A stretch of DNA of 64,000 nt from Limnothrix sp. BL-A-16. Lineage in GTDB: Bacteria > Cyanobacteriota > Cyanobacteriia > CACIAM-69d. Shown piece after piece: positions 4,826-60,545 of this stretch. Numbering within the stretch: position 1 is the first letter of the stretch; every line of letters starts with the position of its first letter. Below the pieces are notes generated by a model. The model made no database searches. It was not told the origin of the DNA and was given only the letters and a program-made list of their open reading frames with translations. The translations under genes and the position numbers were made by a program. The DNA lies in assembly GCA_041937175.2 (NCBI GenBank), contig CP166615.1, positions 1,664,001 to 1,728,000 on the forward strand, written 5' to 3'.

Positions 4826-5143
4826 GGCGATCGGGAGGAAATTGCAAAGAACTTGAATTGTCGATGAAGTAATCGATCGGGCAAGTTCACCAACCTGGCG
4901 ATCGATCGGGCGATCGATTGGGCGATCGACTCAATGCGAACAAATCCAGTGAACCAGGCCATTGAACAACTGGGCAACCCAAGAGACCAAAACACCTCAA
5001 ACCGGCCGCGGGCGATCGGGACTGCCTCGAAACCATCCCGGAATTCGCGAAATACAATGGCAAACGTTTCCTAGCCGATCGGGCCAGTTCGCCGCCCCGT
5101 CCGCAACCTACGCCGCCGCCCCTCACTCTCCCCACCCCCGTCT

Positions 5144-45717: not shown

Positions 45718-46373
45718 TGGTTCCTCGCTAGCAGTGATCACAGTTGAGTTTTTGTTGAGTTCTTGTTGAGTTTTGACAATCAACAGTCCAACAACGGTCA
45801 AATTTCCTGACCTGTGCAAATTGGCCAAATCGGGGCGATCACCCGTGGGTAGACCTCACCACTCCAGTGCTCGCTGGAGTGCAGATGGCCCATCACCCAC
45901 TTGTCCCGCAGGGCTGCCCGGACAGTGACCCGCACAGGCTCAACCTATGTTAGAACGCCACCCGACCGAATCGAACATTTCCCGCCCTGGCCCCTGCCTC
46001 CGATGCGAGCTTTCCCGAGACCTTTAGCTTAGGATTGATTTGGTTTTGATCCATTGGCTTTGCCTGACCCGCCAACCAACCCTGAAACCGGCCCGAGAAC
46101 AGGCTCGAAACCATGGCCCAAAACTCAAAACCATGGTCCAAAAACCAATCAGTGTCAATGCCTTCTATTTCTAAGGATCCAGCTTCAGGATCCAGCTTCG
46201 ATCCTGAAGCTGCATGGCTGTGGGCTGTTGTTTTAGGGAGGTAGACCGGGGTATACCTTGGTCATGCTGGAGCTGAGTTAGACCCTGTAGCTGAATTGAT
46301 TGCCCGTCCGTTTCGCTTCTCGCGCCCGATCGCCCGATCGATGCGCCTTCGATCCCGCTAGGTGTCACCTGCT

Positions 46374-48404
46374 ATGACAAACTCCATAAACCGGCGCGCC
46401 CTGGTTGTCCAAAGCAATTTTTCGCCCTTCGGTAACAAACTTGTGCAGTCGGGCTATGTGGATCCCGACCAAATGAGCCGCGCTTTGGCTGAACACCGCC
46501 AGTCGGGCCGGCCGCTGATGGAAGTGCTGGCAGCGATCGCCGGCAAAGAAGTGCCACCGGAATTGGTGCGCCAGTACAAAAAGCAACTGCTGTTTGAACT
46601 CAAAATTCTCCACGGGGTTGAGGCGATCGACCCGGAAATTGAAGAGGTGTCCGCAGCCCAGGTGGAGCAATGCATTGAAACCCTGATTCCGGTGGATGTT
46701 TGCCGTCGCTATCGGTTGCTGCCCCTGGGGCGGGCCCAACGGGGCGACTCGCCGGCCATGATGGTGGCCATGGCTGACCCGGACAACCTGGACGCGCTGG
46801 ACGATTTGAATCGCATCCTGCGGCCCCAAAACCTGGCCCTGATTCGGCGGGTGATTGCCCCCGAAGATTACCAGGCGATCATTAGCCAATACCTAGACGA
46901 AGCGGCTCGCAAGTCCCAACAGGCTTCCCGCCAAACTTCCGCCGCCGTCAGTTTCGATGAGTCGGATTTGCAGAACCTCGAAGCCATGCAAATGGAAGAG
47001 GCTTCCGACGAATTGGAGACGGACGACCTGGCCAGCTCCATGAACGATGCGGAGTCGGGGCCGATCGTCAACCTGGTGAATAAGGTCTTGATTAAGGCCC
47101 TGCAAGACGGCGTTTCGGATATTCACGTGGAACCCCAAGAGGAAGAAATGCGGATTCGGTTCCGCAAAGATGGGGTGCTGCAAGAGGTGTTCCGGCTCCC
47201 GAAAAAGGTGGTTCCGGCCGTAACTTCCCGGTTCAAGATCATTTCCAACCTGGACATTGCCGAACGACGGGACACCCAGGATGGGCGGATTCGCCGGGTC
47301 TTTGAAGGGCGGAAAGTGGACTTTCGGGTCAATGTGCTGCCCAGTCGCTACGGCGAAAAGATCGTGTTGCGGATTTTGGATAACTCCTCAACACAACTGG
47401 GGCTGGATAAGCTGATTGGTCGGCCAGAATCGTTGCAGTTGGTGCGGGAGATGGCCAGCCGCCCCTTTGGGTTGATTTTGGTGACGGGGCCGACGGGTTC
47501 CGGGAAGTCCACCACGCTCTATTCAATTTTGGCGGAACGGAACGACCCGGGCATCAACATCAGTACCGCTGAAGACCCGATCGAATATGCCTTGCCCGGG
47601 ATTACCCAGGTGCAGGTGATTCGGGAGAAGGGGCTGGACTTTTCGCGGATCCTGCGAGCATTCCTGCGCCAAGACCCGGATGTGATTCTGGTGGGTGAGA
47701 CGCGGGACAAGGAAACAGCCAAAACAGCGATCGAGGCGGCCCTCACGGGTCACTTGGTGTTAACCACCCTGCACACCAACGACGCATCCGGGGCGATCGC
47801 CCGTTTGGATGAAATGGGCGTGGAGCCTTTCATGGTGGCGGGGGCCCTGTTGGGCGTGGTGGCCCAGCGGCTGATGCGGCGCGTGTGTAGCGAATGCCGC
47901 GTTCCCTACACCCCCACTCCCGAAGAGTTGGCCCGCTATGGCATGAGCGCCAACCAAGAATCCCATCTGACCTTCTACAAAGCCAATGTGGTGTCGCCCG
48001 ATGAGCGCAAGGCCCTGGGCGAAATGGGCAAACTTTGTCCCAAGTGTGGCGGTGTGGGCTACAAGGGCCGTTGCGGGGTTTATGAGGTGTTGCAAGTGAC
48101 GGAAACCTTGCAAAATCTGATTACCCAAGGGGCCCCGACCGATCGCATCAAAGAAGCCGCCGTTGAAGAAGGGATGGTCACTCTGTTGGCCTACAGTTTG
48201 GATCTGGTGCGGGAAGGGCTGACCACCTTTGAGGAGGTGGAACGGGTCACCTTCACCGACACCGGGCTAGAAGCAGAACTGAAGGCCAAACGCAAGAGCG
48301 CCCTCACCTGTCGCACCTGCGCGGCAGAACTCCAGCCAGATTGGATGGACTGTCCCTATTGCCTCACGCCTCGGTTTGAAGAGCCGTTGGTGACTGGTCG
48401 CTAG
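46374..48404 (+). CDS. pilB: Type IV pilus assembly ATPase PilB
   Basis: SDIHVEP, GPTGSGKST, LRQDPDVILVGETRD, C-terminal CxxC...CxxC. Confidence 0.95.
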   Translation: MTNSINRRALVVQSNFSPFGNKLVQSGYVDPDQMSRALAEHRQSGRPLMEVLAAIAGKEVPPELVRQYKKQLLFELKILHGVEAIDPEIEEVSAAQVEQCIETLIPVDVCRRYRLLPLGRAQRGDSPAMMVAMADPDNLDALDDLNRILRPQNLALIRRVIAPEDYQAIISQYLDEAARKSQQASRQTSAAVSFDESDLQNLEAMQMEEASDELETDDLASSMNDAESGPIVNLVNKVLIKALQDGVSDIHVEPQEEEMRIRFRKDGVLQEVFRLPKKVVPAVTSRFKIISNLDIAERRDTQDGRIRRVFEGRKVDFRVNVLPSRYGEKIVLRILDNSSTQLGLDKLIGRPESLQLVREMASRPFGLILVTGPTGSGKSTTLYSILAERNDPGINISTAEDPIEYALPGITQVQVIREKGLDFSRILRAFLRQDPDVILVGETRDKETAKTAIEAALTGHLVLTTLHTNDASGAIARLDEMGVEPFMVAGALLGVVAQRLMRRVCSECRVPYTPTPEELARYGMSANQESHLTFYKANVVSPDERKALGEMGKLCPKCGGVGYKGRCGVYEVLQVTETLQNLITQGAPTDRIKEAAVEEGMVTLLAYSLDLVREGLTTFEEVERVTFTDTGLEAELKAKRKSALTCRTCAAELQPDWMDCPYCLTPRFEEPLVTGR

Positions 48405-48685
48405 CTTTTGGCGATCGCCCATGAATGGCGTGCAGGTGGGCAGGGCATCCAGTCTTGATACGATCGCCCACACAATTGGGCATCCTCAGGCCAAATTCAT
48501 GGCTGAACTCACGGCTAACCGTATCCCCAGTTCCGATGGTTCGCGCTGGTTTGCCCCGTTTAGACTCTTCAAACCCCGCCAGCCTTTCGGGTTCTTCAAG
48601 CGTTGTGATTGCGATCGAACCCCATTCGATCAAACCCTCATTCAACCCCTATTCGACCTAACCTCACTCGACAGGAGTAGCGACC

Positions 48686-49774
48686 ATGCCACTGGATTAC
48701 ATGATCGAAGACGTGATGGAATCGCTGATCGAACAAGGCGGCTCCGACATGCATATCCAAGCCGGTGCGCCCATCTATTTTCGGATTAGCGGCAAACTGA
48801 CCCCCCAACCGCAATTTGGCGAAGTCCTCGACTCCCAGGACTGCCAAAAGCTGATTTTCAGTATGCTCAACAACAACCAGCGGAAAGACCTGGAGCAAAA
48901 CTGGGAATTGGACTGCGCCTATGGGGTGAAGGGCCTGTCGCGGTTTCGGGTGAATGTCTATCGCGAGCGGGGCTGCTGGGCCGCCTGTTTGCGGGCCCTG
49001 GCTTCCCAAATTCCCAACTTTGAAAAACTCGGTTTGCCCCAGGTGCTGCTGGAGATGGCGGAGCGGCCCCGGGGCATGGTGCTGATCACGGGACAAACGG
49101 GATCCGGCAAAACCACCACCCTGGCCGCCTGCCTGGACTACATCAACCGCACCCGCGCGGAGCATGTCCTAACGGTGGAAGACCCGATCGAGTATGTGTT
49201 CCCGAACATGAAAAGCCTGTTCCACCAGCGGCAAAAGGGCGAAGACACCAAGAGTTTTGCCAACGCCCTAAAGGCAGCGCTGCGGGAAGACCCGGATATC
49301 ATCCTGGTGGGGGAAATGCGGGACTTGGAAACCATTTCCTTGGCCATCTCCGCCGCTGAAACCGGTCACTTGGTTTTCGGAACCCTGCACACCAACTCCG
49401 CCGCCGGGACGATCGACCGGATTTTGGACGTGTTTCCCCCCATCCAACAGCCCCAAGTCCGAGCCCAGATGGCCAACTCCCTCGTGGGGGTTTGCTCACA
49501 AAACTTGGTCAAGAAAGTTGGGGGCGGTCGCTGTGCAGCACACGAAATTATGCTGAATACCCCCGCTGTGGCGAACCTGATTCGGGAGGGCAAAACCTCG
49601 CAAATCTATTCCACCATTCAAATGGGTGGTAAGCAGGGGATGCAAACCATGGAATCTTGCCTGGCCAAGCTGTACCAAGAAAACAAGATCACCTACGAAG
49701 ATGCCCTGGGTAAAAGCTCCAAACCCGACGAGCTACAGCGGTTGCTGGGGGGCAAGGTCGGCGCTGGTCGCTAG
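48686..49774 (+). CDS. pilT: Type IV pilus retraction ATPase PilT
   Basis: GQTGSGKTT, ALREDPDIILVGEMRD, AVANLIRE, GMQTM. Confidence 0.96.
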   Translation: MPLDYMIEDVMESLIEQGGSDMHIQAGAPIYFRISGKLTPQPQFGEVLDSQDCQKLIFSMLNNNQRKDLEQNWELDCAYGVKGLSRFRVNVYRERGCWAACLRALASQIPNFEKLGLPQVLLEMAERPRGMVLITGQTGSGKTTTLAACLDYINRTRAEHVLTVEDPIEYVFPNMKSLFHQRQKGEDTKSFANALKAALREDPDIILVGEMRDLETISLAISAAETGHLVFGTLHTNSAAGTIDRILDVFPPIQQPQVRAQMANSLVGVCSQNLVKKVGGGRCAAHEIMLNTPAVANLIREGKTSQIYSTIQMGGKQGMQTMESCLAKLYQENKITYEDALGKSSKPDELQRLLGGKVGAGR

Positions 49775-49986
49775 GAACGCCGCATCACTGCGACATCACT
49801 AATGCGACACAACCGATCGGGTGGATAACCGATCGACCCATGGCAACGGACGGGGCGCGATCGCTCGGTAAACCCCCAGGGCGATCGCCCCCATCCCCAG
49901 CCCGATTGCCTCCCACCCCTGCCGCCACCCCTGGCCACAGACCCTCGACAGAATTCTTAGGACTCACGTAGTTTGAGCAGCGCCCT

Positions 49987-51246
49987 ATGGCTAAATTCAT
50001 CGCCACCATCGCTGGCCCCGACGGCAAAGGCAAGCGCGAAGTTGTTGAAGCAGAAAGCATCAACGGGGCGCGTAATAAACTGATTGCCGCTGGGTTTAGC
50101 CAAGCCCAAATCCGCGATCTCAAGGAACAGAAAAGCGGCCTAGACATTGACCTCGCTAGCCTCACGGCCAGCGTGACCGTAAAGGATTTGGCTGTGTTTT
50201 CTCGGCAATTTTCCGCCATGTTCAATGCGGGCATTGCCATGGTGAAATGTTTGGATATTTTGAGCAATCAATGTGAAAATCCCAAACTGAAAAAAGCCCT
50301 ATTTAAAATCAATGCTGATGTGCAAGAAGGGGAAACCCTGTCTTCTTCGCTGAAACGACACGGCGACATCTTCAGTAAGCTCTATTGCGCCATGGTGGAA
50401 GCGGGTGAAATTGGGGGGGTGCTCGATGAAGTGCTCACCCGACTGGCAACCCTGCTGGAAAATGCCGCCCGGCTACAAAACCAAATTAAGTCCGCCATGT
50501 CCTATCCCTCAACGGTGGGATCTTTGGCGGTCATTATCTTTTTGGGAATGACCATTTTCCTGCTGCCAACCTTTACGGGAATTTTCGATAAGTTGGGAGC
50601 TGAATTGCCGGCGTTCACGCAAATCATGATTAATATCAGTGAATTTTTGCGTGGCCCCACCTTCCCCGACGATGATCCCAAGGGGCGCAAGAATTTCTAT
50701 GTGGTGTTTTTGGTCATTGCTTTGGTTGCCGGCAAAGTTGTCTATGACCTGTGGTATAAAACACCGGCTGGCAAGCGCCAAATGGATGCCGTTTTTCTGA
50801 AGTTGCCGATTTTTGGAGACATCATTCAGAAAAGCTCGGTGGCTAGTTTTTGCCGCACCTTTGGAACGTTGACGCGATCGGGTGTGCCGATTATTCAAGC
50901 CCTCGAAATTTGTAAAGATACCGCCGATAACCAGGTGGTTTCGGATGCGGTGGCTTCCTCCATTACCGAAATTCAAGGTGGGGGAACAATCAGTGCGGCG
51001 ATCGAGCGATATAAAGTCTTCCCGGCCATGGCCATTCAGATGATGATGATTGGTGAGGAAACCGGGGAACTCGACAAAATGTTGATGAAGGTGGCGGACT
51101 TCTATGAAGATGAAGTGGAGCAAGCGATCAAGGGTCTAACCAGTATGTTGGAGCCGTTGATGATTGTGGTGATTGGGGGGATGGTTGGTTCGATTCTGTT
51201 GGCGATGTATTTGCCCATCTTTGCGGTAATGGATGCGATTAAGTAG
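49987..51246 (+). CDS. pilC: Type IV pilus platform protein PilC
   Basis: AGEIGGVLDEVL, IKSAMSYP, GEETGELDKML; pilBTC synteny. Confidence 0.95.
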   Translation: MAKFIATIAGPDGKGKREVVEAESINGARNKLIAAGFSQAQIRDLKEQKSGLDIDLASLTASVTVKDLAVFSRQFSAMFNAGIAMVKCLDILSNQCENPKLKKALFKINADVQEGETLSSSLKRHGDIFSKLYCAMVEAGEIGGVLDEVLTRLATLLENAARLQNQIKSAMSYPSTVGSLAVIIFLGMTIFLLPTFTGIFDKLGAELPAFTQIMINISEFLRGPTFPDDDPKGRKNFYVVFLVIALVAGKVVYDLWYKTPAGKRQMDAVFLKLPIFGDIIQKSSVASFCRTFGTLTRSGVPIIQALEICKDTADNQVVSDAVASSITEIQGGGTISAAIERYKVFPAMAIQMMMIGEETGELDKMLMKVADFYEDEVEQAIKGLTSMLEPLMIVVIGGMVGSILLAMYLPIFAVMDAIK

Positions 51247-51647: not shown

Positions 51648-53780
51648 CTACTTAGACACAGCCCACGATCGCACCTTACCAAGAGTGACTGGCATTCGAT
51701 CACTCACATCAATCGTGAATCGAAAAATCCGCTTGGCTCGCCGTCCATTGTCAGGGTCAAAAAACTTCAATTTTACGTCCCAGCACTCGCTGCCATAGCG
51801 ACAGAATGGACTTTTCTCAACTTCAATATCTGCTAACTCCATTCCCTGGGCTACAGCCTCTGAAAAAGTCTGGACAGCTTGGAAGGCATTTGTTGTTGCA
51901 AAGTTCAGTGCCCGATCGCGCGCCAATTGTCCCAAGTTTCGCAGGTCATAGTAAACCCGATTAAGAAAACTAGTCAGTGATCGTCGCATTCGACTCTCAT
52001 CAGCAACTGCTTGATTGGCACTAACCGTCTGCAAGGCCGATTCCACCAATGAATTGACTTTCCAGCCATACATTCCACGCGGACTATTAACCTTCAAAAT
52101 TGGTACTTCCTGACCAGAAAAGAGGCGCACCGTTTCGTTGATCACAATTCCCGGTATACTGACTCGCTCGATATAGTTATCATCATCCTCCGCTAATACT
52201 TGCCCACCCAGCAAGTAGGTCAAAATCTCATAGATCTCTGCCCCAAAAGCTCCTACGGGTTGAATGGCATACACCGGAGTTAGCTCTAGATTAAGTGTCC
52301 AAATCAGTGATTTTGCTTCAAAGAGATTTTCGTCCAGATAGTCCACCATTTGACGGGCATCATAGGGATTGGCAGGAATCTGGACATTCCCTACCGTAGC
52401 GGCCGGCATAAATTGTTTAAAGGTGTCACGCCGGGCCTCAGTGCCAAAATCATATCCAATCGTCCCAAGGGTGTAAGCCAAGTTGGAGCGAGGGCTAGTG
52501 GTGGCAGCAGAAGGCGTGATCGGGGTGGCCGAAATCACATTCGTTGTTGCATTGGCTGTGGTCGCTGCGGATTGAACAGCCGCAGCGACCACTAATTGCT
52601 CCTCCGGCGAAGCGATCGCAGTTTTAGGACTAGGTTCAGAAACTACGGTTAGATGAGATTGGTTATTAACGCCTAAATAGCCTTGGTCAATACCAGTTTC
52701 CGGAGCAATAATTTCCACCCCTGAGTCATCATCCACAGGGCGATTGCTCACCTCAGCCTTCGTCTGCTGGTATTGCAACGGTGTGCCCATAATTAACTCA
52801 TAGGCTCCGGCAATGTTAATTCTGCCCAGTAAGCACCGTTCTGGCTCTTCCGTCGTTTCCGGGTCGCAGGGAATAGCACTATTGAGCAAGGCTGCCCGCA
52901 CCGCTTCTGCATCGGGAGCCAAACCCTGTTCCAATTGCAAACTCATCAGGAGGGCGGCTGTTCCTGTAATGATCGGGGCAGCACAGCTCGTACCTTTTTG
53001 GCGGATGGGGATATCGGTACCCGGTAGCGCACCAAGAACATTTTCGCCAGGGGCTAAAATGCCTTGGCTGGCGTATTTACCGCCAAAGTTACTGAACTTA
53101 AATGGTTCGCCCGTATCTTTCATCGCACCGACCGTCAGCACATGATCGAGGACGGCCGGAATACACCAACATTCACCCTTATCGTTACCGCCTGGGGCAA
53201 TGACTAAAATATTATTTTCCTGCGCTTGTTTAATAGCTTTTTCAATAAATTCGTGGGCGATACCACTTTGGGTAGGATGGCAAGCGGCACAGTGAATAAT
53301 GTTAACGTCCTGCTCGATCGCGGTGCTAATAGCTCGAGATAGATTCAAAGGATTGATGAAATCTTCCCCATTAACCGCAATAGGAATATTAATTACTGTT
53401 GCCCTAGGAGCAATACCTTCGACAGGAGAGCCGGGTTGACCGCAAATGGTGCTGATGATGTGGGCAGCATGACTCTGTAGGTGAATACTTCGGCGAATGT
53501 TTTCATCGGGGATAGCCGCTTCCATTAGCTTCCCCGATTCCTCCTCACTGAGACCTGCTGCTTTGGCATGGAGGTCAATTTCAACAAAGGCTTGAATATC
53601 AGCTGGGTCGATTTCAAATGATTCGATCCAGTAGGGATCAATTCGAGTTAGATTTCCCCCTTGAAAGCAAGCCCGATCAAGATCAACCTTCCCATCAAGC
53701 ACAGCAATTTTGATGCGCGGATCGCCAAGGGTACGCGATCGCAAGGCAGACATTCCAGAAATATCGGCTAGATTCGGCAT
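51648..53780 (-). CDS. Cyanobactin C-terminal protease/macrocyclase (PatG-type, no oxidase domain) with DUF C-terminus
   Basis: IAVLDG, helical insertion before SHAAH, KGTSCAAP; C-terminal GYDFGTEARRDTFKQ...FTIDVSDRMPVTLG. Confidence 0.93.
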   Translation of the reverse strand: MPNLADISGMSALRSRTLGDPRIKIAVLDGKVDLDRACFQGGNLTRIDPYWIESFEIDPADIQAFVEIDLHAKAAGLSEEESGKLMEAAIPDENIRRSIHLQSHAAHIISTICGQPGSPVEGIAPRATVINIPIAVNGEDFINPLNLSRAISTAIEQDVNIIHCAACHPTQSGIAHEFIEKAIKQAQENNILVIAPGGNDKGECWCIPAVLDHVLTVGAMKDTGEPFKFSNFGGKYASQGILAPGENVLGALPGTDIPIRQKGTSCAAPIITGTAALLMSLQLEQGLAPDAEAVRAALLNSAIPCDPETTEEPERCLLGRINIAGAYELIMGTPLQYQQTKAEVSNRPVDDDSGVEIIAPETGIDQGYLGVNNQSHLTVVSEPSPKTAIASPEEQLVVAAAVQSAATTANATTNVISATPITPSAATTSPRSNLAYTLGTIGYDFGTEARRDTFKQFMPAATVGNVQIPANPYDARQMVDYLDENLFEAKSLIWTLNLELTPVYAIQPVGAFGAEIYEILTYLLGGQVLAEDDDNYIERVSIPGIVINETVRLFSGQEVPILKVNSPRGMYGWKVNSLVESALQTVSANQAVADESRMRRSLTSFLNRVYYDLRNLGQLARDRALNFATTNAFQAVQTFSEAVAQGMELADIEVEKSPFCRYGSECWDVKLKFFDPDNGRRAKRIFRFTIDVSDRMPVTLGKVRSWAVSK

Positions 53781-53964: not shown

Positions 53965-54180
53965 TTAGCACCAGATTCGGCCGCGCCGAAACGGTTTTTC
54001 GTTCTTTGGGCGCTGGTAGACTTGGTAAAACGTGCGCCAACGACCGTAATCCTCCAAGCCGGTTGTCAAGGGTTGTGGTTCCTTCTTGGTTTTGGGTTCT
54101 GAGGATTGATCGTTGGTTTCAGCCGACTCTGTTTCGGCCACTTGCTCGGCTGATTTTTTTGATTTTTTATCGTTTGCCAT
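53965..54180 (-). CDS. Cyanobactin PatC/TruC family protein
   Basis: TTGLEDYGRWR...KPFRRGRIWC. Confidence 0.88.
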   Translation of the reverse strand: MANDKKSKKSAEQVAETESAETNDQSSEPKTKKEPQPLTTGLEDYGRWRTFYQVYQRPKNEKPFRRGRIWC

Positions 54181-54244: not shown

Positions 54245-54451
54245 CTAGTAAGAACGCCCTTGTCCTGACATTTTCAAGTAGCCATAGGCCGGATATTGAA
54301 ACTGAGCCGGATCGTTGTAATTAGCGCCGTGCATGATGTCCATGCGAATGCTCAACAGGTCTTCACCACCACCATGAAGGACATCCACACAGTCATGGAT
54401 GTGGACGAAATGAGGGCGTTTGACTGGGGGAGATTGTTTAGGAAGTGCCAT
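54245..54451 (-). CDS. Cyanobactin PatB/AcyB family protein
   Basis: LPKQSPPVKRPHFV...DLLSIRMDIMHGANYNDP. Confidence 0.9.
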   Translation of the reverse strand: MALPKQSPPVKRPHFVHIHDCVDVLHGGGEDLLSIRMDIMHGANYNDPAQFQYPAYGYLKMSGQGRSY

Positions 54452-54562: not shown

Positions 54563-56545
54563 TTAGTAAGGCGACGACCAGGAACGCACCTCGCCCAGGG
54601 TGACAGGAATGAGGTCGCTCACATCAATCGTAAAACGGAAGACCTTCTTGGCGCGGCGGCTGTTTTCCGGATCAAAGAACTTCAGTTGCACGTCCCAACA
54701 ATCGCTGTCCATCCGACAGAAGGGACTCTTGGACACATTGATGCTGTCCAGTTCCATCCCCGCGCCAACGGCTTCCGAGAAGGTTTGGGCGGCTTGGAAC
54801 GCATTGGTGGCAGCGAAGTTGAGAGCGCGGTCTTGGGAGGTTTGGCCCAAGTTGCGGAGATCGTAATAAATTCGATTCAGGAAGCTGCTGAGCGTGCGGC
54901 GCATTTGGCTTTCATTGCCGTCCTGTTCGGTACCCACGGCTTCTAGGGCGGTATCTACCAGGGTGTTGACGTGCCAGCCGTACATCCCACGTGGGCTTTG
55001 GGGTTCGATGACGGGGACGACTTGACCAGAGAACAGACGCACGGTGCGACCCGTAATCAGGCCGGGAATGCTGACCCGCTCAATGTAGTCTGGGCTGTCT
55101 TCAGCTTCGACCTGACCTGCCAAGAGGCCTTGGAGGACAGCATAGACTTCACGGGAGAAGGAACCCGTAGGCTCAATTGCATAAATCGGGGTCAATTCCA
55201 GGTTCAGCGTCCAAATCAGCGATTTGGTTTCTGATAGGTTTTCCCCTAGGTAATCGACCATTTGCCGCGCATCGTAGGGGTTGGCGGGAATCTGCGTTCC
55301 TTCAATGGCGTAGGGTGGCATGAGTTGTTTGAAGGTGTCGCGGCGGGCTTCGCTGCCGAAGTCGTAACCGAGAGTACCGATCGCGTAAACCATGCCATTA
55401 GCGGGTTCAGCAGCTTGGCTGGGGGTGATGGGGGCGCTGGTGGTTTCGGGCATAGGGGTTCCTGATGAAGTAATGGCGTTAACAGGGGTTTCGATCGCAC
55501 TGACCGTTACCAGGGCGGGTTGGCGCTCCTGTGGGGGAGAAACAATTTCTTCTGCTTCTTCCACGGGCGGGGAGGAACCGCCGCAACTGCAACCGGAGGC
55601 TTCTATCAGTGCGGTTTCTAAGCTTTGATCTTGGTCGTCAGACATACTGACTCCTATTAATTTTTCTCCGGTTAACTTTTGAACAGCCCCAGGAATATTC
55701 AGAACACCGACCAAACATTTGCGATCGTGTTCGGTGTCGGCAAGGGGACAAGGCAGAGCGGTTGCGAGGATGGCATCCCGCACCGCTTGGGGGTTAGGGT
55801 CGTCGCCCCGTTGCACCTGAAGGCTCAGCAGCAGGGCAGCCACACCCGAGATAATGGGAGCGGCAAAGCTAGTGCCACTGAGCCGAATGATGCCACCACC
55901 GGGACTAGCGCCGGGGATGTTCTCACCGGGGGCGAGAATGCCTTGGCTTTGGTAGGTTTCTCCCCAGTTGCTGAAATCTAGGGGATGACCTCTGGCATCC
56001 ATTGCACCAACCGCGAGGACGGCGGGTAGGGCGGCGGGGACATTCAGGCAGTCGCAACCATCGTTTCCGGCGGCGGCAACGATGAGGATGTTGCGTTCTT
56101 TGCAGGTTTGCACGGCGCGATCGAGCCAGTCTTCTGCTTCGCCAATATCGGTGAGAGCACCACCGCTGATGTTGATGATGTGCGCTCCGGCTTCGGCGGC
56201 TTGTTCTATGGCGCGGGCGAGATCCAGTTGGGAGAGTTTGCGGTTGTCGTCGGAGAAGACGGGGGCGAGGATGCCGCGACAGTGGGGGGCGAGTCCGGGA
56301 ACTTCGGTGTTGGGCTGCCCGAAAATCAGGCTGGCAATGTGGGTGCCGTGGGTGGACATGGCCCCGGTGGTGGCTTTGCCCAGGGCGAGGGTGGGGAGGC
56401 GGCTGAGGGTGGCACCAGCAAAGCAGGGATGGTCGGTATCGACAATGCCATCGAGGACGGCGACACGAATATCGGAAGAGCCTTGGGTGCGGGTTTGTAA
56501 GCTCAGAAGACCAGGAATTAATTCTTTCGCCAAACTCTGACTCAT
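54563..56545 (-). CDS. Cyanobactin N-terminal leader protease (PatA-type subtilisin) with DUF C-terminus
   Basis: VAVLDG, HGTHIAS, AAAGNDG, SGTSFAAP catalytic motifs; C-terminal domain paralogous to that of G. Confidence 0.94.
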   Translation of the reverse strand: MSQSLAKELIPGLLSLQTRTQGSSDIRVAVLDGIVDTDHPCFAGATLSRLPTLALGKATTGAMSTHGTHIASLIFGQPNTEVPGLAPHCRGILAPVFSDDNRKLSQLDLARAIEQAAEAGAHIINISGGALTDIGEAEDWLDRAVQTCKERNILIVAAAGNDGCDCLNVPAALPAVLAVGAMDARGHPLDFSNWGETYQSQGILAPGENIPGASPGGGIIRLSGTSFAAPIISGVAALLLSLQVQRGDDPNPQAVRDAILATALPCPLADTEHDRKCLVGVLNIPGAVQKLTGEKLIGVSMSDDQDQSLETALIEASGCSCGGSSPPVEEAEEIVSPPQERQPALVTVSAIETPVNAITSSGTPMPETTSAPITPSQAAEPANGMVYAIGTLGYDFGSEARRDTFKQLMPPYAIEGTQIPANPYDARQMVDYLGENLSETKSLIWTLNLELTPIYAIEPTGSFSREVYAVLQGLLAGQVEAEDSPDYIERVSIPGLITGRTVRLFSGQVVPVIEPQSPRGMYGWHVNTLVDTALEAVGTEQDGNESQMRRTLSSFLNRIYYDLRNLGQTSQDRALNFAATNAFQAAQTFSEAVGAGMELDSINVSKSPFCRMDSDCWDVQLKFFDPENSRRAKKVFRFTIDVSDLIPVTLGEVRSWSSPY

Positions 56546-56558
56546 AACTTCAGTGAGA

Positions 56559-57443
56559 TTAGGGATTTTGGCTCGTAAAAGCTTTGCTGTAATACAGATT
56601 CACGTTGTTAATTCTCCCCGCTTTCATCTCTGATTCTGAAAGGGCAACCCACATTCTTCTAGAACCCTCTTGTTGGAGATAAAAATCGTGAACTCGACGA
56701 GCCGTGTCGTTGATGGGAAAGTAGGATAAAAAATCTTCAATATTTTCTAGATGGTAGTAGAGAACATTGGCTTCATTGGCAGGACTCAAACCGATTCCAA
56801 ACAAACTGCAAAGAGGCAAGGGCTTGAGAGCTTCAGGAGACAGTATTGTTTTTAACTGGTTGTAGATGAAAGGATGATTAAATTCATCTTTTTTTAATTC
56901 AGGATAGAGTTCGATCGCACTACGACCATCTAAATAAAAGTCAAAGCCGATCTGCAAAGTATCTGATCGCAGCATGGCTTCGGACTCTGGAGTGATGTTG
57001 CAGAGGTGCTTGGCCACAGCCATTTTTTCGGGATAGTCACCAATGCGGATAAAGAGTTTGAGTTTGGATTCGCCAAGATTTTGACGCAGATCGATGCCCG
57101 CGAGGACAGTTTGAACTTTGCTGTAGTCAAAGTTGCCTGCCAAAAAGGTGGCAAGAATGTCGAGATTGAGATTGACATCGGTTCTGGATGCAGCGCGTTT
57201 TAGGAAGTCAATAGAGGTGTGAATATTGCGGGAATGTTGTTTATCGGAAAACTGAAGATCGATGCGGGCTGGGTAAAGCTGGTCTTGTTTGATTTTGCCC
57301 GAACATTCGATTAGACAGTCCCCTGTCGTGGCAACAAACTCTTCAAATAGTGCTAGGGGATAGAGCGGTTCGATATCAAAGACTTGTTTGTGGTTGCCAA
57401 TATATCTTAATTTTTCTTCTGGTGCGATCGTTGACTTAAACAC
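56559..57443 (-). CDS. Cyanobactin ABBA-fold prenyltransferase (LynF/TruF/PatF family), LimF-like
   Basis: FDIEPLYPLALFE, IECSGKI, GIDLR...SKLKL, IGFDFYLDGRSAIELY, NLYY; similarity to LimF is from memory and needs alignment. Confidence 0.92.
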   Translation of the reverse strand: MFKSTIAPEEKLRYIGNHKQVFDIEPLYPLALFEEFVATTGDCLIECSGKIKQDQLYPARIDLQFSDKQHSRNIHTSIDFLKRAASRTDVNLNLDILATFLAGNFDYSKVQTVLAGIDLRQNLGESKLKLFIRIGDYPEKMAVAKHLCNITPESEAMLRSDTLQIGFDFYLDGRSAIELYPELKKDEFNHPFIYNQLKTILSPEALKPLPLCSLFGIGLSPANEANVLYYHLENIEDFLSYFPINDTARRVHDFYLQQEGSRRMWVALSESEMKAGRINNVNLYYSKAFTSQNP

Positions 57444-57497
57444 TTTGCTGCCCTTTCGTTTTTTGATGAGTCACTCATTCACAATTTGCACAAAGCG

Positions 57498-58283
57498 ATG
57501 CCCAGAAAACCGAGAATTTTCAAGCAGGGATACGCTTATCACATCACAACCCGCTGCAACAATCGGGAGTTTAAACTATCGCGGCGAGAATGTCGGGAGG
57601 TGTTTCTTTATGCCATTCGCAAGGCATTGGATAAGTTCGGGTTCAAGCTGTACGGGCTGTGCATTATGTCGAACCACGTTCATTACCTGCTGGAACCCAC
57701 TCAACCCGAGGATTTGCCGAAAATTATGCACTTCCTCAATTGGTACACGGCGATGTGTTTTAATCGGATGCTCGGAAGAACGGGGCATTTTTGGGAAAAG
57801 CGGTATTTCTGCGATGGGTTTCCGGCGACCGACCGAGACAGAACTTTAAATACCCTGCGTTACATTCACGGCAATCCAAAAGCGGCAAAAATGCGTTCTA
57901 CCTTCTTCTATGAATTCGGTAACTACGGCAGCTACGAACGCTTGACTGATGATGGATTAACCCAGTGGCATCCAGCTTTTCTGCGACTGGGCAGAAGTTT
58001 GGAGGAATGTGCCAAGAAATACAAGGGTTTTTGTCAGCGATATAAGCCGAAGTCTAAAGAGCCAAGGAAATATGCTTGGGGTAGCCGCCTGCTGGCTGAT
58101 GCTCGTTTATCCAGTCGGGGAGGTGGGGAAAAAAGCCAGGTTGAGGGTCGAGAAAGACTCAACCCCAACCGTCTGGCTGACCCCACCCGGTGCCAGGTAT
58201 CGGAATGCCCTGAAGTGACGAGGGTTGCCCGTCAATTCATTGAGGCGAACCAAGCGCCTTGGCACTCAGAAAAAGGGTTTTGA
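57498..58283 (+). mobile_element. HUH Y1 tyrosine transposase (TnpA-REP/RAYT-like), apparently intact ORF
   Basis: MPRKPR, YHITTRCNNRE, MSNHVHYLL (HUH), GHFWEKRY, LRYIHGNP (catalytic Tyr). Confidence 0.9.
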
Positions 58284-58316
58284 CCTGTTTTGAGGTGGAT
58301 GATAGAATGAGGCGTG

Positions 58317-58466
58317 TTACTCCGCATCGTCTCCCGCAAAAGGATTGTATTCATGACTACGTCCGTGGGGCGTGATCGCATTCCCATCACGAGAAACAGT
58401 CGCGGAAGTTTCGCGCTGCACGGGAGCCACGGTTTGCGGCATCAGCGCTTTCAGATCTTTCTTCAT
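58317..58466 (-). CDS. Cyanobactin precursor E1, core GRSHEYNP (not in ORF track)
   Basis: MKKDLKALMPQTVAPVQRETSATVSRDGNAITPH-GRSHEYNP-FAGDDAE. Confidence 0.92.
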   Translation of the reverse strand: MKKDLKALMPQTVAPVQRETSATVSRDGNAITPHGRSHEYNPFAGDDAE

Positions 58467-58820
58467 GGTCTTTGCCTCAAGTTGAGTGAGGGGCATTGTT
58501 CCTATCAGGAACTACAGAGAAGCTAGCCCTCTTTATTCAGCATCGTCAAGACTAGGGTATAAAAGATTGCATCTACAATTTCTTTATTTTTGATGCAATC
58601 AAGCTCAGTGAAAAGAGAGCAAAAATGGTCAGGCAACTGCAGTAGAGAAATAATTCAGTTGCCTGTTTTGGAGCCTTGCGATCTAACAACCTAGTGCCAG
58701 GTATCGGAATGCCCTGAAGTGACGAGGGTTGCCCGTCAATTCATTGAGGCGAACCAAGCGCCTTGGCACTCAGAAAAAGGGTTTTGACCTGTTTTGAGGT
58801 GGATGATAGAATGAGGCGTG

Positions 58821-58976
58821 TTACTCCGCATCGTCTCCCGCAAAAGGATCCCAACTCCTAAATGAACCCGAATCGTGGGGCGTGATCGCATTCCCATCAC
58901 GAGAAACAGTCGCGGAAGTTTCGCGCTGCACGGGAGCCACGGTTTGCGGCATCAGCGCTTTCAGATCTTTCTTCAT
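58821..58976 (-). CDS. Cyanobactin precursor E2, core DSGSFRSWDP
   Basis: Same leader; AITPH-DSGSFRSWDP-FAGDDAE. Confidence 0.92.
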   Translation of the reverse strand: MKKDLKALMPQTVAPVQRETSATVSRDGNAITPHDSGSFRSWDPFAGDDAE

Positions 58977-59330
58977 GGTCTTTGCCTCAAGTTGAGTGAG
59001 GGGCATTGTTCCTATCAGGAACTACAGAGAAGCTAGCCCTCTTTATTCAGCATCGTCAAGACTAGGGTATAAAAGATTGCATCTACAATTTCTTTATTTT
59101 TGATGCAATCAAGCTCAGTGAAAAGAGAGCAAAAATGGTCAGGCAACTGCAGTAGAGAAATAATTCAGTTGCCTGTTTTGGAGCCTTGCGATCTAACAAC
59201 CTAGTGCCAGGTATCGGAATGCCCTGAAGTGACGAGGATTGCCCGTCAATTCATTGAGGCGAACCAAGCGCCTTGGCACTCAGAAAAAGGGTTTTGACCT
59301 GTTTTGAGGTGGATGATAGAATGAGGCGTG

Positions 59331-59554
59331 TTACTCCGCATCGTCTCCCGCAAAAGGATTAAAAGGATTACTCATCACTTCACTTCCGTTCCGCAATTCA
59401 ACCCAACATGATCAAACCAACACAAACCACCCCCGGGGCGTGCAATCCACGCCCGGGGCGTGATCGCATTCCCATCACGAGAAACAGTCGCGGAAGTTTC
59501 GCGCTGCACGGGAGCCACGGTTTGCGGCATCAGCGCTTTCAGATCTTTCTTCAT
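59331..59554 (-). pseudogene. Cyanobactin precursor E3 with scrambled, out-of-frame core
   Basis: Leader intact to AITP; 224 nt from ATG to the follower stop (not a multiple of 3); reading frame stops at 59375; NPFAGDDAE present in another frame. Confidence 0.85.
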
Positions 59555-59908
59555 GGTCTTTGCCTCAAGTTGAGTGAGGGGCATTGTTCCTATCAGGAAC
59601 TACAGAGAAGCTAGCCCTCTTTATTCAGCATCGTCAAGACTAGGGTATTAAAGATTGCATCTACAATTTCTTTATTTTTGATGCAATCAAGCTCAGTGAA
59701 AAGAGAGCAAAAATGGTCAGGCAACTGCAGTAGAGAAATAATTCAGTTGCCTGTTTTGGAGCCTTGCGATCTAACAACCTAGTGCCAGGTATCGGAATGC
59801 CCTGAAGTGACGAGGGTTGCCCGTCAATTCATTGAGGCGAACCAAGCGCCTTGGCACTCAGAAAAAGGGTTTTGACCTGTTTTGAGGTGGATGATAGAAT
59901 GAGGCGTG

Positions 59909-60064
59909 TTACTCCGCATCGTCTCCCGCAAAAGGATTACTATGAGTAGGATGTAGTAGTCCGTGGGGCGTGATCGCATTCCCATCACGAGAAACAGTCG
60001 CGGAAGTTTCGCGCTGCACGGGAGCCACGGTTTGCGGCATCAGCGCTTTCAGATCTTTCTTCAT
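59909..60064 (-). CDS. Cyanobactin precursor E4, core GLLHPTHSNP
   Basis: Same leader; AITPH-GLLHPTHSNP-FAGDDAE. Confidence 0.92.
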   Translation of the reverse strand: MKKDLKALMPQTVAPVQRETSATVSRDGNAITPHGLLHPTHSNPFAGDDAE

Positions 60065-60429
60065 GGTCTTTGCCTCAAGTTGAGTGAGGGGCATTGTTCC
60101 TATCAGGAACTACAGAGAAGCTAGCCCTCTTTATTCAGCATCGTCAAGACTAGGGTATAAAAGATTGCATCTACAATTTCTTTATTTTTGATGCAATCAA
60201 GCTCAGTGAAAAGAGAGCAAAAATGGTCAGGCAACTGCAGTAGAGAAATAATTCAGTTGCCTGTTTTGGAGCCTTGCGATCTAACAACCTAGTGCCAGGT
60301 ATCGGAATGCCCTGAAGTGACGAGGGTTGCCCGTCAATTCATTGAGGCGAACCAAGCGCCTTGGCACTCAGAAAAAGGGTTTTGACCTGTTTTGAGGTGG
60401 ATGGTAAAGTGCCATCGTCACCAAACGGC

Positions 60430-60545
60430 GAAGTAGTGATACACCGCTATGCGGGGTCGTCCACCTGCCTTGATGTGACGGGCAACAGGGCTTCCCGGAG
60501 TTGCCATTGGTCATCAGTTAAATCACCTGGGTAGGATAGAGACAC
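60430..60545 (-). pseudogene. IS5-family transposase N-terminal remnant
   Basis: VSLSYPGDLTDDQWQLREALLP then frameshifted AGGRPR, matching the IS5 YPSDLTDxQW...GGRPR start. Confidence 0.75.

Follow-up and report, generated by a model that had tools for sequence, protein, structure and literature searches.

The locus described here lies in a 64-kilobase (kb) stretch of Limnothrix sp. BL-A-16 (assembly GCA_041937175.2, contig CP166615.1, positions 1,664,001 to 1,728,000, forward strand), which is called the window below and to which all coordinates refer. It contains a head-to-tail array, R-E1-R-E2-R-E3-R-E4-R, spanning 58190-60403, in which E1 to E4 are cyanobactin precursor genes and R is a repeat of 112 nucleotides (nt). 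The first R, R1, is the 3' end of an intact plus-strand gene for a Y1 (HUH) protein resembling REP-associated tyrosine transposases (RAYTs). On the minus strand E4 to E1 are followed by the prenyltransferase (PatF type), one PatA/G-family protease, PatB, PatC and another protease of the PatA/G family, and the single-copy Y1 gene is located between patF and the precursor array. The array and its flanking Y1 gene comprise the following features.

57486-58283, plus strand: RAYT-like Y1 (HUH) gene; Pfam Y1_Tnp, 63.5 bits; homologues start at the ATG at 57498
58190-58301, plus strand: R1, the 3' tail of the Y1 gene and 18 nt; 15-nt motif at 58190-58204
58280-58308, plus strand: promoter-like site, sigma70-like, TTGACC, 17 nt, TAGAAT; TG precedes the second hexamer
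58317-58466, minus strand: E1 precursor, 49 amino acids from MKKDL; core at 58341-58364, AITPH-GRSHEYNP-FAGDDAE
58497-58693, no strand given: U, the precursor upstream region, with hairpins at 58565-58600 and 58630-58665; present in every unit
58694-58805, plus strand: R2; motif at 58694-58708
58784-58812, 59294-59322, 59872-59900 and, weaker, 60382-60410, plus strand: repeats of the promoter-like site, found by scan
58821-58976, minus strand: E2 precursor; core at 58845-58874, DSGSFRSWDP
59204-59315, plus strand: R3; motif at 59204-59218; one substitution, at 59238
59331-59554, minus strand: E3, a broken precursor; leader intact, block 59355-59452 shifts the frame
59782-59893, plus strand: R4; motif at 59782-59796
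59909-60064, minus strand: E4 precursor; core at 59933-59962, GLLHPTHSNP
60292-60403, plus strand: R5, the terminal copy; motif at 60292-60306

An earlier note on this DNA had described the layout of the array, and it was reproduced almost to the base. The units started at 58190, 58694, 59204 and 59782 and measured 504, 510, 578 and 510 nt; they were followed by a terminal R of 112 nt, starting at 60292 and ending at 60403. In agreement with the description of R as a repeat of the transposase 3' end with its native copy first, R1 ran from the third base of codon 235 through codons 236-265 and the stop codon to 18 nt of spacer beyond it, and the five copies of R matched R1 at 112, 112, 111, 112 and 112 of 112 nt. 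Each cassette had four parts: R, the promoter-like site, the precursor gene and the precursor's own upstream region, which was about 190 nt long and held two hairpins, the second of which (58630-58665) had a folding energy of -10.0 kcal/mol (z = -2.3). Outside the cores the units differed by exactly two substitutions, 59238 (G>A) and 59647 (A>T); the count given earlier and the first position stood, while the second position had been put at 59649. The variable blocks of 24, 30, 98 and 30 nt (58341-58364, 58845-58874, 59355-59452 and 59933-59962) had the lengths reported, and the cores of E1 to E4 could not be aligned with one another, again as reported. One precursor gene per unit, as had been claimed, was found intact in E1, E2 and E4, and was broken in E3. 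A metagenome contig spanned 58365-58904 exactly and a contig from an RNA library spanned 59877-60317 exactly; these two environmental contigs give partial independent support for the tandem order, one run with spanning contigs possibly being the window's own source sample.

Family searches identified the remaining genes of the cluster, among them two proteases of the subtilisin-like PatA/PatG family, both far above the TIGR03895 cut-off of 421 bits.

51648-53780, minus strand: PatA/PatG-family cyanobactin protease, 710 amino acids; TIGR03895, 841.7 bits; Pfam Peptidase_S8, PatG_D and PatG_C
53965-54180, minus strand: PatC-family small protein; TIGR04447, 46.5 bits (cut-off 30)
54245-54451, minus strand: PatB/AcyB-family small protein; TIGR04220, 115.3 bits (cut-off 55)
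54563-56545, minus strand: second PatA/PatG-family protease, 660 amino acids; TIGR03895, 912.3 bits; also matched in Pfam
56559-57443, minus strand: PatF/LynF/TruF-family prenyltransferase; TIGR04445, 307.4 bits; DUF5838

Among the 10 open reading frames (ORFs) scanned between 46362 and 62987, none belonged to a cyclodehydratase (heterocyclase) family. None of the 10 array-side ORFs scanned matched a reverse transcriptase of the kind found in diversity-generating retroelements, for which no dedicated search was made. By its family matches, the cluster is a piricyclamide/anacyclamide-type, prenylated, heterocyclase-free cyanobactin cluster. E1, E2 and E4 matched TIGR04446, the family of anacyclamide/piricyclamide (PirE-type) precursors, at 69-70 bits (cut-off 35) and followed the pattern AITPH-core-FAGDDAE; the motif for the cut after TPH is quoted in an excerpt of PMC9366434. 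The match of E3 to the same model, 43.7 bits, was confined to the leader. The 98-nt block of E3, within which small stretches of flank sequence are duplicated, is not a multiple of three and throws the FAGDDAE-coding end (59331-59354) out of frame, so that the assembled E3 is broken. Beside this end, E3 carries a tandem 9-nt duplication, and the leader-core junction sequence occurs in a further, partial copy. These duplications resemble scars left by imprecise exchange at the two borders of the core.

The Y1 gene, whose probable start is the ATG at 57498, was intact and encoded NHVH (the HUH motif), FWEKRY (with the tyrosine) and RYIHGNP, the last corresponding to the Y---NP signature given in Table 1 of PMC6006769. 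The catalytic set of H64, H66 and Y126 was unchanged in 66 of 66 relatives. The best curated match was NF047646, the REP-associated tyrosine transposase model, at 56 bits (under its cut-off of 80), and the IS200/IS605 model NF033573 gave 22 bits against a cut-off of 55. Foldseek placed the predicted structure, with a predicted local distance difference test score of about 70-85 in the core and poor values in the C-terminal third, closest to 4ER8_A, the REP-associated tyrosine transposase of Escherichia coli (E = 7.5e-5, template-modelling score normalized to the target 0.55), followed by the transposases of IS200, IS608 and ISDra2. A C-terminal motif following a variable linker was present in most of 18 aligned homologues (707 homologues were found); since this tail is common to most homologues, R derives from the Y1 gene and not the reverse.

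The 4.56-Mb genome contained one copy of the Y1 gene. Where other genomes held several, these were only 77-88% alike within a genome, which argues against recent bursts, and their homology barely exceeded the ORF, so that the ends of an element could not be defined. No conserved left-end element was present upstream of the Y1 gene when the loci of relatives were compared. The gene was considered as part of an IS200/IS605 insertion sequence and this assignment was rejected, given the single copy, the subthreshold NF033573 score and the lack of both a conserved left end and a hairpin.

R opened exactly at a 15-nt motif, GTGCCAGGTATCGGA, and it was at the base before the first G of this motif that the R copies and the gene's own sequence diverged in the window. 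The genome of the window held five occurrences of the motif, all in the array. With up to two mismatches, GTGCCAGGTATCGGA was found within the 3' end of the Y1 gene in 59 of the 79 loci fetched around its closest relatives (numbered L below; G numbers denote genomes), in three reading frames and never on the opposite strand. The cyanobactin clade and its sisters had it in one frame, 94 nt before the gene end; a distant clade had it in a different frame, 30 nt before the gene end, and in four loci it followed the stop codon. Frameshifted copies of the Y1 gene kept the motif in another frame. When alignment rows were selected from the tree, irrespective of the motif, the codons for Cys, Gln and Val that overlie it were identical in 22 of 22, 22 of 22 and 20 of 20 rows, compared with a mean share of 0.64 for the commonest codon over 179 conserved columns, of which 11 reached 0.95 or more. 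The retention of the motif across frames and its invariant codons indicate that the DNA is conserved and not the protein. Among the matches listed, at least 121 of 401 genomes contained the motif with up to one mismatch; about 0.4 matches per genome are estimated by chance at that stringency and a reversed-pattern control also matched, so that exact copies alone are informative.

In L025, L032, L065 and L061, and for some copies in L031 and L056, the edge of the repeat was no more than 1 nt from the motif start; in L022, L023, L026, L030 and L051 it lay 3-15 nt upstream of that start. A low-complexity linker blurs some of these calls. At L025 (4590-4714) and L051 (4593-4720), a tail copy and a precursor were found beyond patF, not in tandem, with an edge 1-4 nt from the motif; thus, a cassette can sit apart from the gene. 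In Microcoleus (L021, 9113-9850), a second near-full Y1 copy lay inside the precursor array and was followed by three units of tail and precursor.

The pairing of the Y1 gene with cyanobactin genes recurred across the 79 loci. PatF was encoded in 24 of them, and in 22 of these 24 it was directly upstream and divergent, 40-65 nt from the Y1 start, as in the window. A scan covering 150 of the 157 small ORFs found a precursor of family TIGR04446 or TIGR03678 (the prenylated and patellamide types) on the minus strand just past the Y1 stop codon in at least 27 of the 79 loci, in many genera. Dolichospermum, Microcoleus, Nostoc, Microcystis, Arthrospira and others carried additional tail copies, which stood about 40 nt ahead of another precursor, and 20 of 60 sequences with a complete tail (59 loci and the window) had at least one additional copy at the DNA level. 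The link between transposase and cassettes suggested by the earlier note was thereby extended to many genera, with the same gene in the same position and its tail repeated before further precursors; as to whether transposase and R are always linked, which the note had asked to be checked, the array of the sister species G002 lacks an intact gene.

All 21 loci first scored as cyanobactin-linked fell within one well-supported clade of 31, of which at least two further members proved cyanobactin-linked by inspection. The Y1 tree tracked host taxa, Nostocales grouping with Nostocales and Microcoleus with Microcoleus. The tree of the PatF genes (L015-L056) had two deep types that crossed both host taxa and the Y1 gene tree, which suggests that prenyltransferases were swapped within otherwise stable clusters. 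The correlation between the two genes was negligible (Spearman -0.02 over 120 pairs) and, given this swapping of PatF types, says nothing on linkage. Of 401 genomes of the class, sampled separately, seven contained PatF; the Y1 gene was adjacent in three and present as a remnant in a fourth, G002. In the distant-clade loci L069, L079 and L089, the convergent neighbor was a larger ORF that we take by eye to be GUN4-like and not a peptide precursor, and there were no additional copies of the motif. The conserved placement and the host-tracking tree make the Y1 gene an old resident of cyanobactin clusters and not a recent insertion.

The motif was also found beside precursors of other peptide classes. 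In two Nostoc loci, L052 and L065, genes for a GNAT enzyme and a C39-peptidase ABC exporter lay upstream of the Y1 gene and divergent from it, and two or three convergent small ORFs with a common double-glycine-type leader and unlike cores followed it; in L065 the tandem unit began exactly at the motif. These peptides matched no NCBIfam family and gave only faint sub-threshold leader matches in Pfam, and their putative assignment to a double-glycine-leader class comes from reading by eye and from the neighboring C39 exporter in these two loci. No peptide-processing enzymes were found within 6 kb in L032, L050, L043, L045, L072 and L080.

Exact copies of the motif were numerous, among the matches listed, in some small-genome picocyanobacteria. 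In genomes G351 and G400, most copies stood about 100 nt before the stop codon of a convergent Nif11-leader (prochlorosin-like) precursor: 10 motif-ORF pairs were noted among 19 copies, 11 of 11 ORFs tested matched TIGR03798, and C-terminal Y1 fragments lay between the cassettes. The 11 copies in G351 had a similarity of 0.88 across 60 nt counted from the motif start, compared with 0.28 across the preceding 40 nt, and their upstream sequences fell into five groups at an identity threshold of 0.65, at least three of them plainly unrelated, with invariance beginning at the first G. These picocyanobacterial elements retained the motif and had a hairpin in place of the promoter-like site. At L096 (G400), a short GC-rich hairpin stood directly before the motif copies at 4863, 7979, 14967 and 15353, unlike most cyanobactin arrays. 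Collectively, these comparisons place the motif at the boundary of predicted cassettes of three peptide classes: cyanobactin, double-glycine-leader and Nif11-leader.

The sister species G002 (L007) carried the same locus with a ruined Y1 gene, of which the first few dozen bases and the tail were left with a short repeat-like insert between them (about 825-1100). In this species, two of the three R copies had a motif that was altered or bore a small duplication, and the flanks of the two cassettes were 79% identical, compared with 100% in the window, a contrast drawn from one species pair. The left flank of the window unit was 96.8% like cassette b of G002 and 78.8% like cassette a, whereas its right flank was 86.7% like cassette a and 77.7% like cassette b. 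The window unit is thus a mosaic of the two G002 cassettes, its flanks having separate histories that meet at the core.

Environmental sequences carried further cores. One run contained an E1 unit with 12 substitutions and two indels, all within 58345-58364, and one change elsewhere; a second run had a longer, different core at the position of E2, and a third had another core on the same leader. This evidence comprises four runs, all in the form of contigs, for which the fact that no joints or circles were reported proves nothing. Together with the mosaic flanks, these cores can be accounted for by homogenised flanks around retained or imported cores, and mutation directed at the core is not needed. 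These data suggest that flanks have been homogenised while cores were kept, rather than that cores are hypermutated; the idea that cores are replaced faster than by drift is therefore superfluous, as the mosaic flanks of G002 fit homogenisation around old cores.

The outer edge of the array in the window was also found in G002. It is marked by one weakly matching feature.

60447-60545, minus strand: fragment resembling the N terminus of an IS4/IS5 transposase; weak match, DUF4096, E = 0.061

A PFGDDG-like stretch to the right of R5 (about 60404-60440) was considered as a degenerate fifth precursor and set aside as too weak for a claim. Just past the opposite end of the cyanobactin cluster, at 46362-51246, lay genes for T2SSE, T2SSE and T2SSF, the ATPases and platform protein of a type IV pilus or type II secretion system.

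We propose a model in which the Y1 protein would be a domesticated single-strand DNA nuclease with the motif as its substrate. A nick at the 5' edge of the motif, which is present in the gene's own tail and in every R, would start copying or strand exchange, and copying or exchange from motif to motif would duplicate, delete and homogenise whole cassettes. Exchange would run through the conserved flanks and halt at unlike cores, and old or imported cores would thereby be kept while the flanks stay alike. That the Y1 protein cuts at the motif and thereby drives the gain, loss and homogenisation of cassettes is a proposition we regard as evenly poised. The wider proposal, that a clade of RAYT-like HUH nucleases and one 15-nt site would form a general machine that multiplies and reshuffles precursor cassettes of at least three unrelated classes of peptides that are synthesized ribosomally and modified post-translationally (RiPPs), by nicking at the 5' edge of the site and copying from site to site, is more tentative and falls somewhat short of that balance.

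Several observations weigh against this model. Ordinary homologous recombination of the host, acting on repeats of 460 nt, is able to alter copy number and even out the flanks unaided, and G002 keeps its array without the enzyme, the contrast between enzyme-bearing window and G002 resting on that single pair. The copied piece extended well upstream of the motif in L021, L037, L043 and L052, and gapped extensions of this kind were seen in L023, L026 and L042. RNAalifold found no conserved pairs in R across 55 copies, and a hairpin preceded R in only 5 of 26 copies, from three lineages. With no conserved hairpin in or before R, the classical hairpin-guided mode of IS200 and RAYT enzymes is unsupported, and the integrase-like action of the transposase suggested in the earlier note fares no better, given this lack and the R boundary further upstream in some lineages. 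The mechanism is a proposal drawn from sequence. For the prochlorosin genes of marine picocyanobacteria, where a similar association is known, the authors later saw no strong evidence for or against causality (bioRxiv 10.1101/2020.03.09.984088).

The alternative that survives best is a passive origin, in which a tandem duplication took the tail of the convergent gene along, host recombination expanded and homogenised the units, and the Y1 protein played no part; R would persist because it lies inside the repeat unit or carries downstream signals of the precursor. The precursor lies 34 nt from the end of the convergent gene, and any duplication that carries over 34 nt of its downstream flank is bound to take in the tail. 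Copies of the tail were 75-100% identical to the tail of their own genome's gene, far above the identity between genomes, which is a signature of concerted evolution, and the mosaic flanks shared by the window and G002 show exchange stopping at the core. The differing left edges among lineages, the lack of conserved hairpins and the survival of the G002 array without the gene also fit this account. It leaves unexplained, however, why the same gene family lies convergent beside three unrelated precursor classes, why a 15-nt motif is held at the DNA level across frames, why unrelated upstream sequences abut the first base of the motif and why the catalytic residues are invariant. We therefore consider a passive origin unlikely, and enzyme action at the motif is favored over passive duplication with gene conversion.

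A second alternative concerns the promoter-like site in R, whose first hexamer overlaps the Y1 stop codon and which is aimed antisense at the 3' end of the precursor. The site matched at 10 of 12 positions in four copies and at 9 of 12 in the fifth, and a promoter scan of the window returned nine sites against 3.5 expected, all five R copies included. A match was present in 45 of 64 motif-anchored copies. In most of these the first hexamer stood at +90 from the motif, with five at +85 to +97, and about 8-13 nt separated the second hexamer from the precursor stop codon. In the alignment of 55 copies, G112, T114, A115 and T119 were at least 90% conserved, although they are non-coding. In two metatranscriptome runs, cassette contigs were far deeper than transposase contigs (78.7 versus 1.7-7.3 in one, and 4500 and 750 versus 3.4 in the other), these values being crude, strand-blind contig depths. 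The depths of 4500 and 750 were those of 31-mers from precursor 3' ends (58317-58344 and 59909-59937) in run X11, where the transposase reached about 3. These strand-blind depths suggest very high precursor expression in nature. R carries a conserved promoter-like sequence with a putative function.

The fixed geometry, with the motif at 0 and the hexamers at their set distances, the conservation of the four bases outside the coding region, the excess of sites in the scan and the disparity in RNA depth would all be accommodated if the Y1 protein had been domesticated for regulation, binding the motif without cutting it, controlling the antisense promoter in R and setting which precursors are expressed. 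R would then be kept by selection for control, and copy number would be left to host recombination. We consider this improbable: the invariant HUH and tyrosine residues argue for retained catalysis, and the replacement of the promoter-like site by a hairpin in motif-bearing picocyanobacterial elements indicates that the promoter is not a universal part.

The last alternative is that an ordinary insertion sequence arrived between patF and the precursors in recent times, its tail being duplicated by chance. This accords with the wording of PMC4663559, PMC6162287, PMC9366434 and PMC6256058, in which the gene between E and F is described as an "inserted" or "present" transposase, but it is very improbable and is largely refuted by the single genome copy, the remnant at the same position in G002, the same placement in many genera, the gene tree tracking host taxa, the copies in other genomes being 77-88% alike without recent bursts, and the lack of a conserved left-end element. 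A recent multi-copy insertion had been named at the outset as the finding that would undo the proposed link, and what was found was a single copy in an old placement.

If the wider proposal is correct, the general cassette machine would build the natural peptide libraries, the origin of which has been open since the patellamide and prochlorosin studies. How RiPP libraries with many cores on one conserved leader arise is unsolved for cyanobactins and prochlorosins alike, and the only proposal naming an enzyme, TnpA_REP, had been based on a single peptide class from a single group of organisms. The cyanobactin loci (at least 27) and the C39-exporter cases, with their shared convergent arrangement, replicate the association independently. 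The shared motif offers a concrete substrate for testing, requiring one oligonucleotide and one protein, and R and the leader flanks are a practical handle for recovering core diversity from environmental DNA. Since the "inserted transposase" is a resident part, the annotation of cyanobactin clusters should change.

The cluster in the window shares with the piricyclamide, anacyclamide and prenylagaramide clusters (Leikoski 2012, PMC3428304; Entfellner 2022, PMC9366434; PMC6256058) the genes A, B, C, E, F and G, the lack of a heterocyclase, several E genes alike except for the core, and an IS200-like transposase between F and E. Variable numbers of such E genes are well known, strains of the published clusters differing in their E copy number (1-12 pagE). 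In the passages available from PMC4663559, PMC6162287, PMC9366434 and PMC6256058, the transposase that separates E from F in the art, sph and pag clusters and in the pir cluster of Limnothrix is treated as an insertion or exception. Unlike the findings here, the accessible portions of PMC3428304, PMC9366434 and PMC6256058 state neither that the tail is repeated after each precursor nor that the gene is a conserved member of the cluster. Primer PreR, given in PMC6162287 for amplifying anacyclamide-type precursors across strains, resembles the tail-coding part of R (58240-58270) by eye. The "conserved downstream region" used in the field may therefore be the 3' end of the Y1 gene.

RAYT (TnpA_REP) proteins, as represented by 4ER8 and by Quentin 2018 (PMC6006769), share with the Y1 protein the HUH-Y1 fold, the Y---NP signature, a low copy number, the absence of transposon ends and a short element multiplied near the gene. 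The system differs from RAYT/REP/REPIN systems in having no palindromic REPs and no genome-wide spread, in multiplying a whole expression cassette and in scoring below the NF047646 cut-off. No REP palindromes, flanking or dispersed, were found: R had no conserved pairs, and in the genome of the window the motif was confined to the array; subclass 2.1 is itself listed without REP in PMC6006769.

With integrons, the locus shares a cassette array beside a recombinase gene, a recurring boundary site and a variable number of cassettes. It differs in that the enzyme is an HUH nuclease and not a tyrosine recombinase (IntI), there are no attC-like hairpins, each cassette has its own upstream region and not a common promoter, and cassettes differ in about 24-30 nt only. 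With IS200/IS605 and IS91/ISCR elements it shares an HUH enzyme of the kind acting on single strands; unlike them, it has no subterminal hairpins, no left end, diverged copies and no transposon structure. Rolling-circle capture of the IS91/ISCR type involves one fixed end and one variable end and would fit copying from the motif.

The closest parallel is the prochlorosin system. In marine picocyanobacteria, TnpA_REP genes and fragments of their C-terminal part stand opposite procA genes at a distance that is conserved, and a role in diversifying recombination was proposed (Laurenceau et al., bioRxiv 10.1101/2020.03.09.984088). Both systems have a Y1 gene of the RAYT group 1/subclass 2.1 type, C-terminal fragments, convergent precursors at a fixed distance, and a conserved leader and intergenic region around a hypervariable core, a layout also observed here in G351 and G400. 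The window differs in encoding a cyanobactin and not a lanthipeptide, and in holding the gene inside the biosynthetic cluster beside patF; the main text of the preprint names a hairpin and a G-quadruplex, not a 15-nt motif. The preprint reported that the closest cyanobacterial relatives were not colocalised with lanthipeptide-related genes and called the link unique to marine picocyanobacteria (10.1101/2020.03.09.984088); by the predicted classes of their neighbors, relatives are linked to other peptide classes. Full-text searches, outside of which some subscription papers fell, found no paper linking the Y1 gene or its tail to cyanobactin precursor cassettes. Thus, a RAYT-like gene with RiPP precursor cassettes is of a kind already proposed for prochlorosins, and what is new, as far as the literature was searched, is its extension to cyanobactin and exporter-type clusters and the common motif at the cassette edge.

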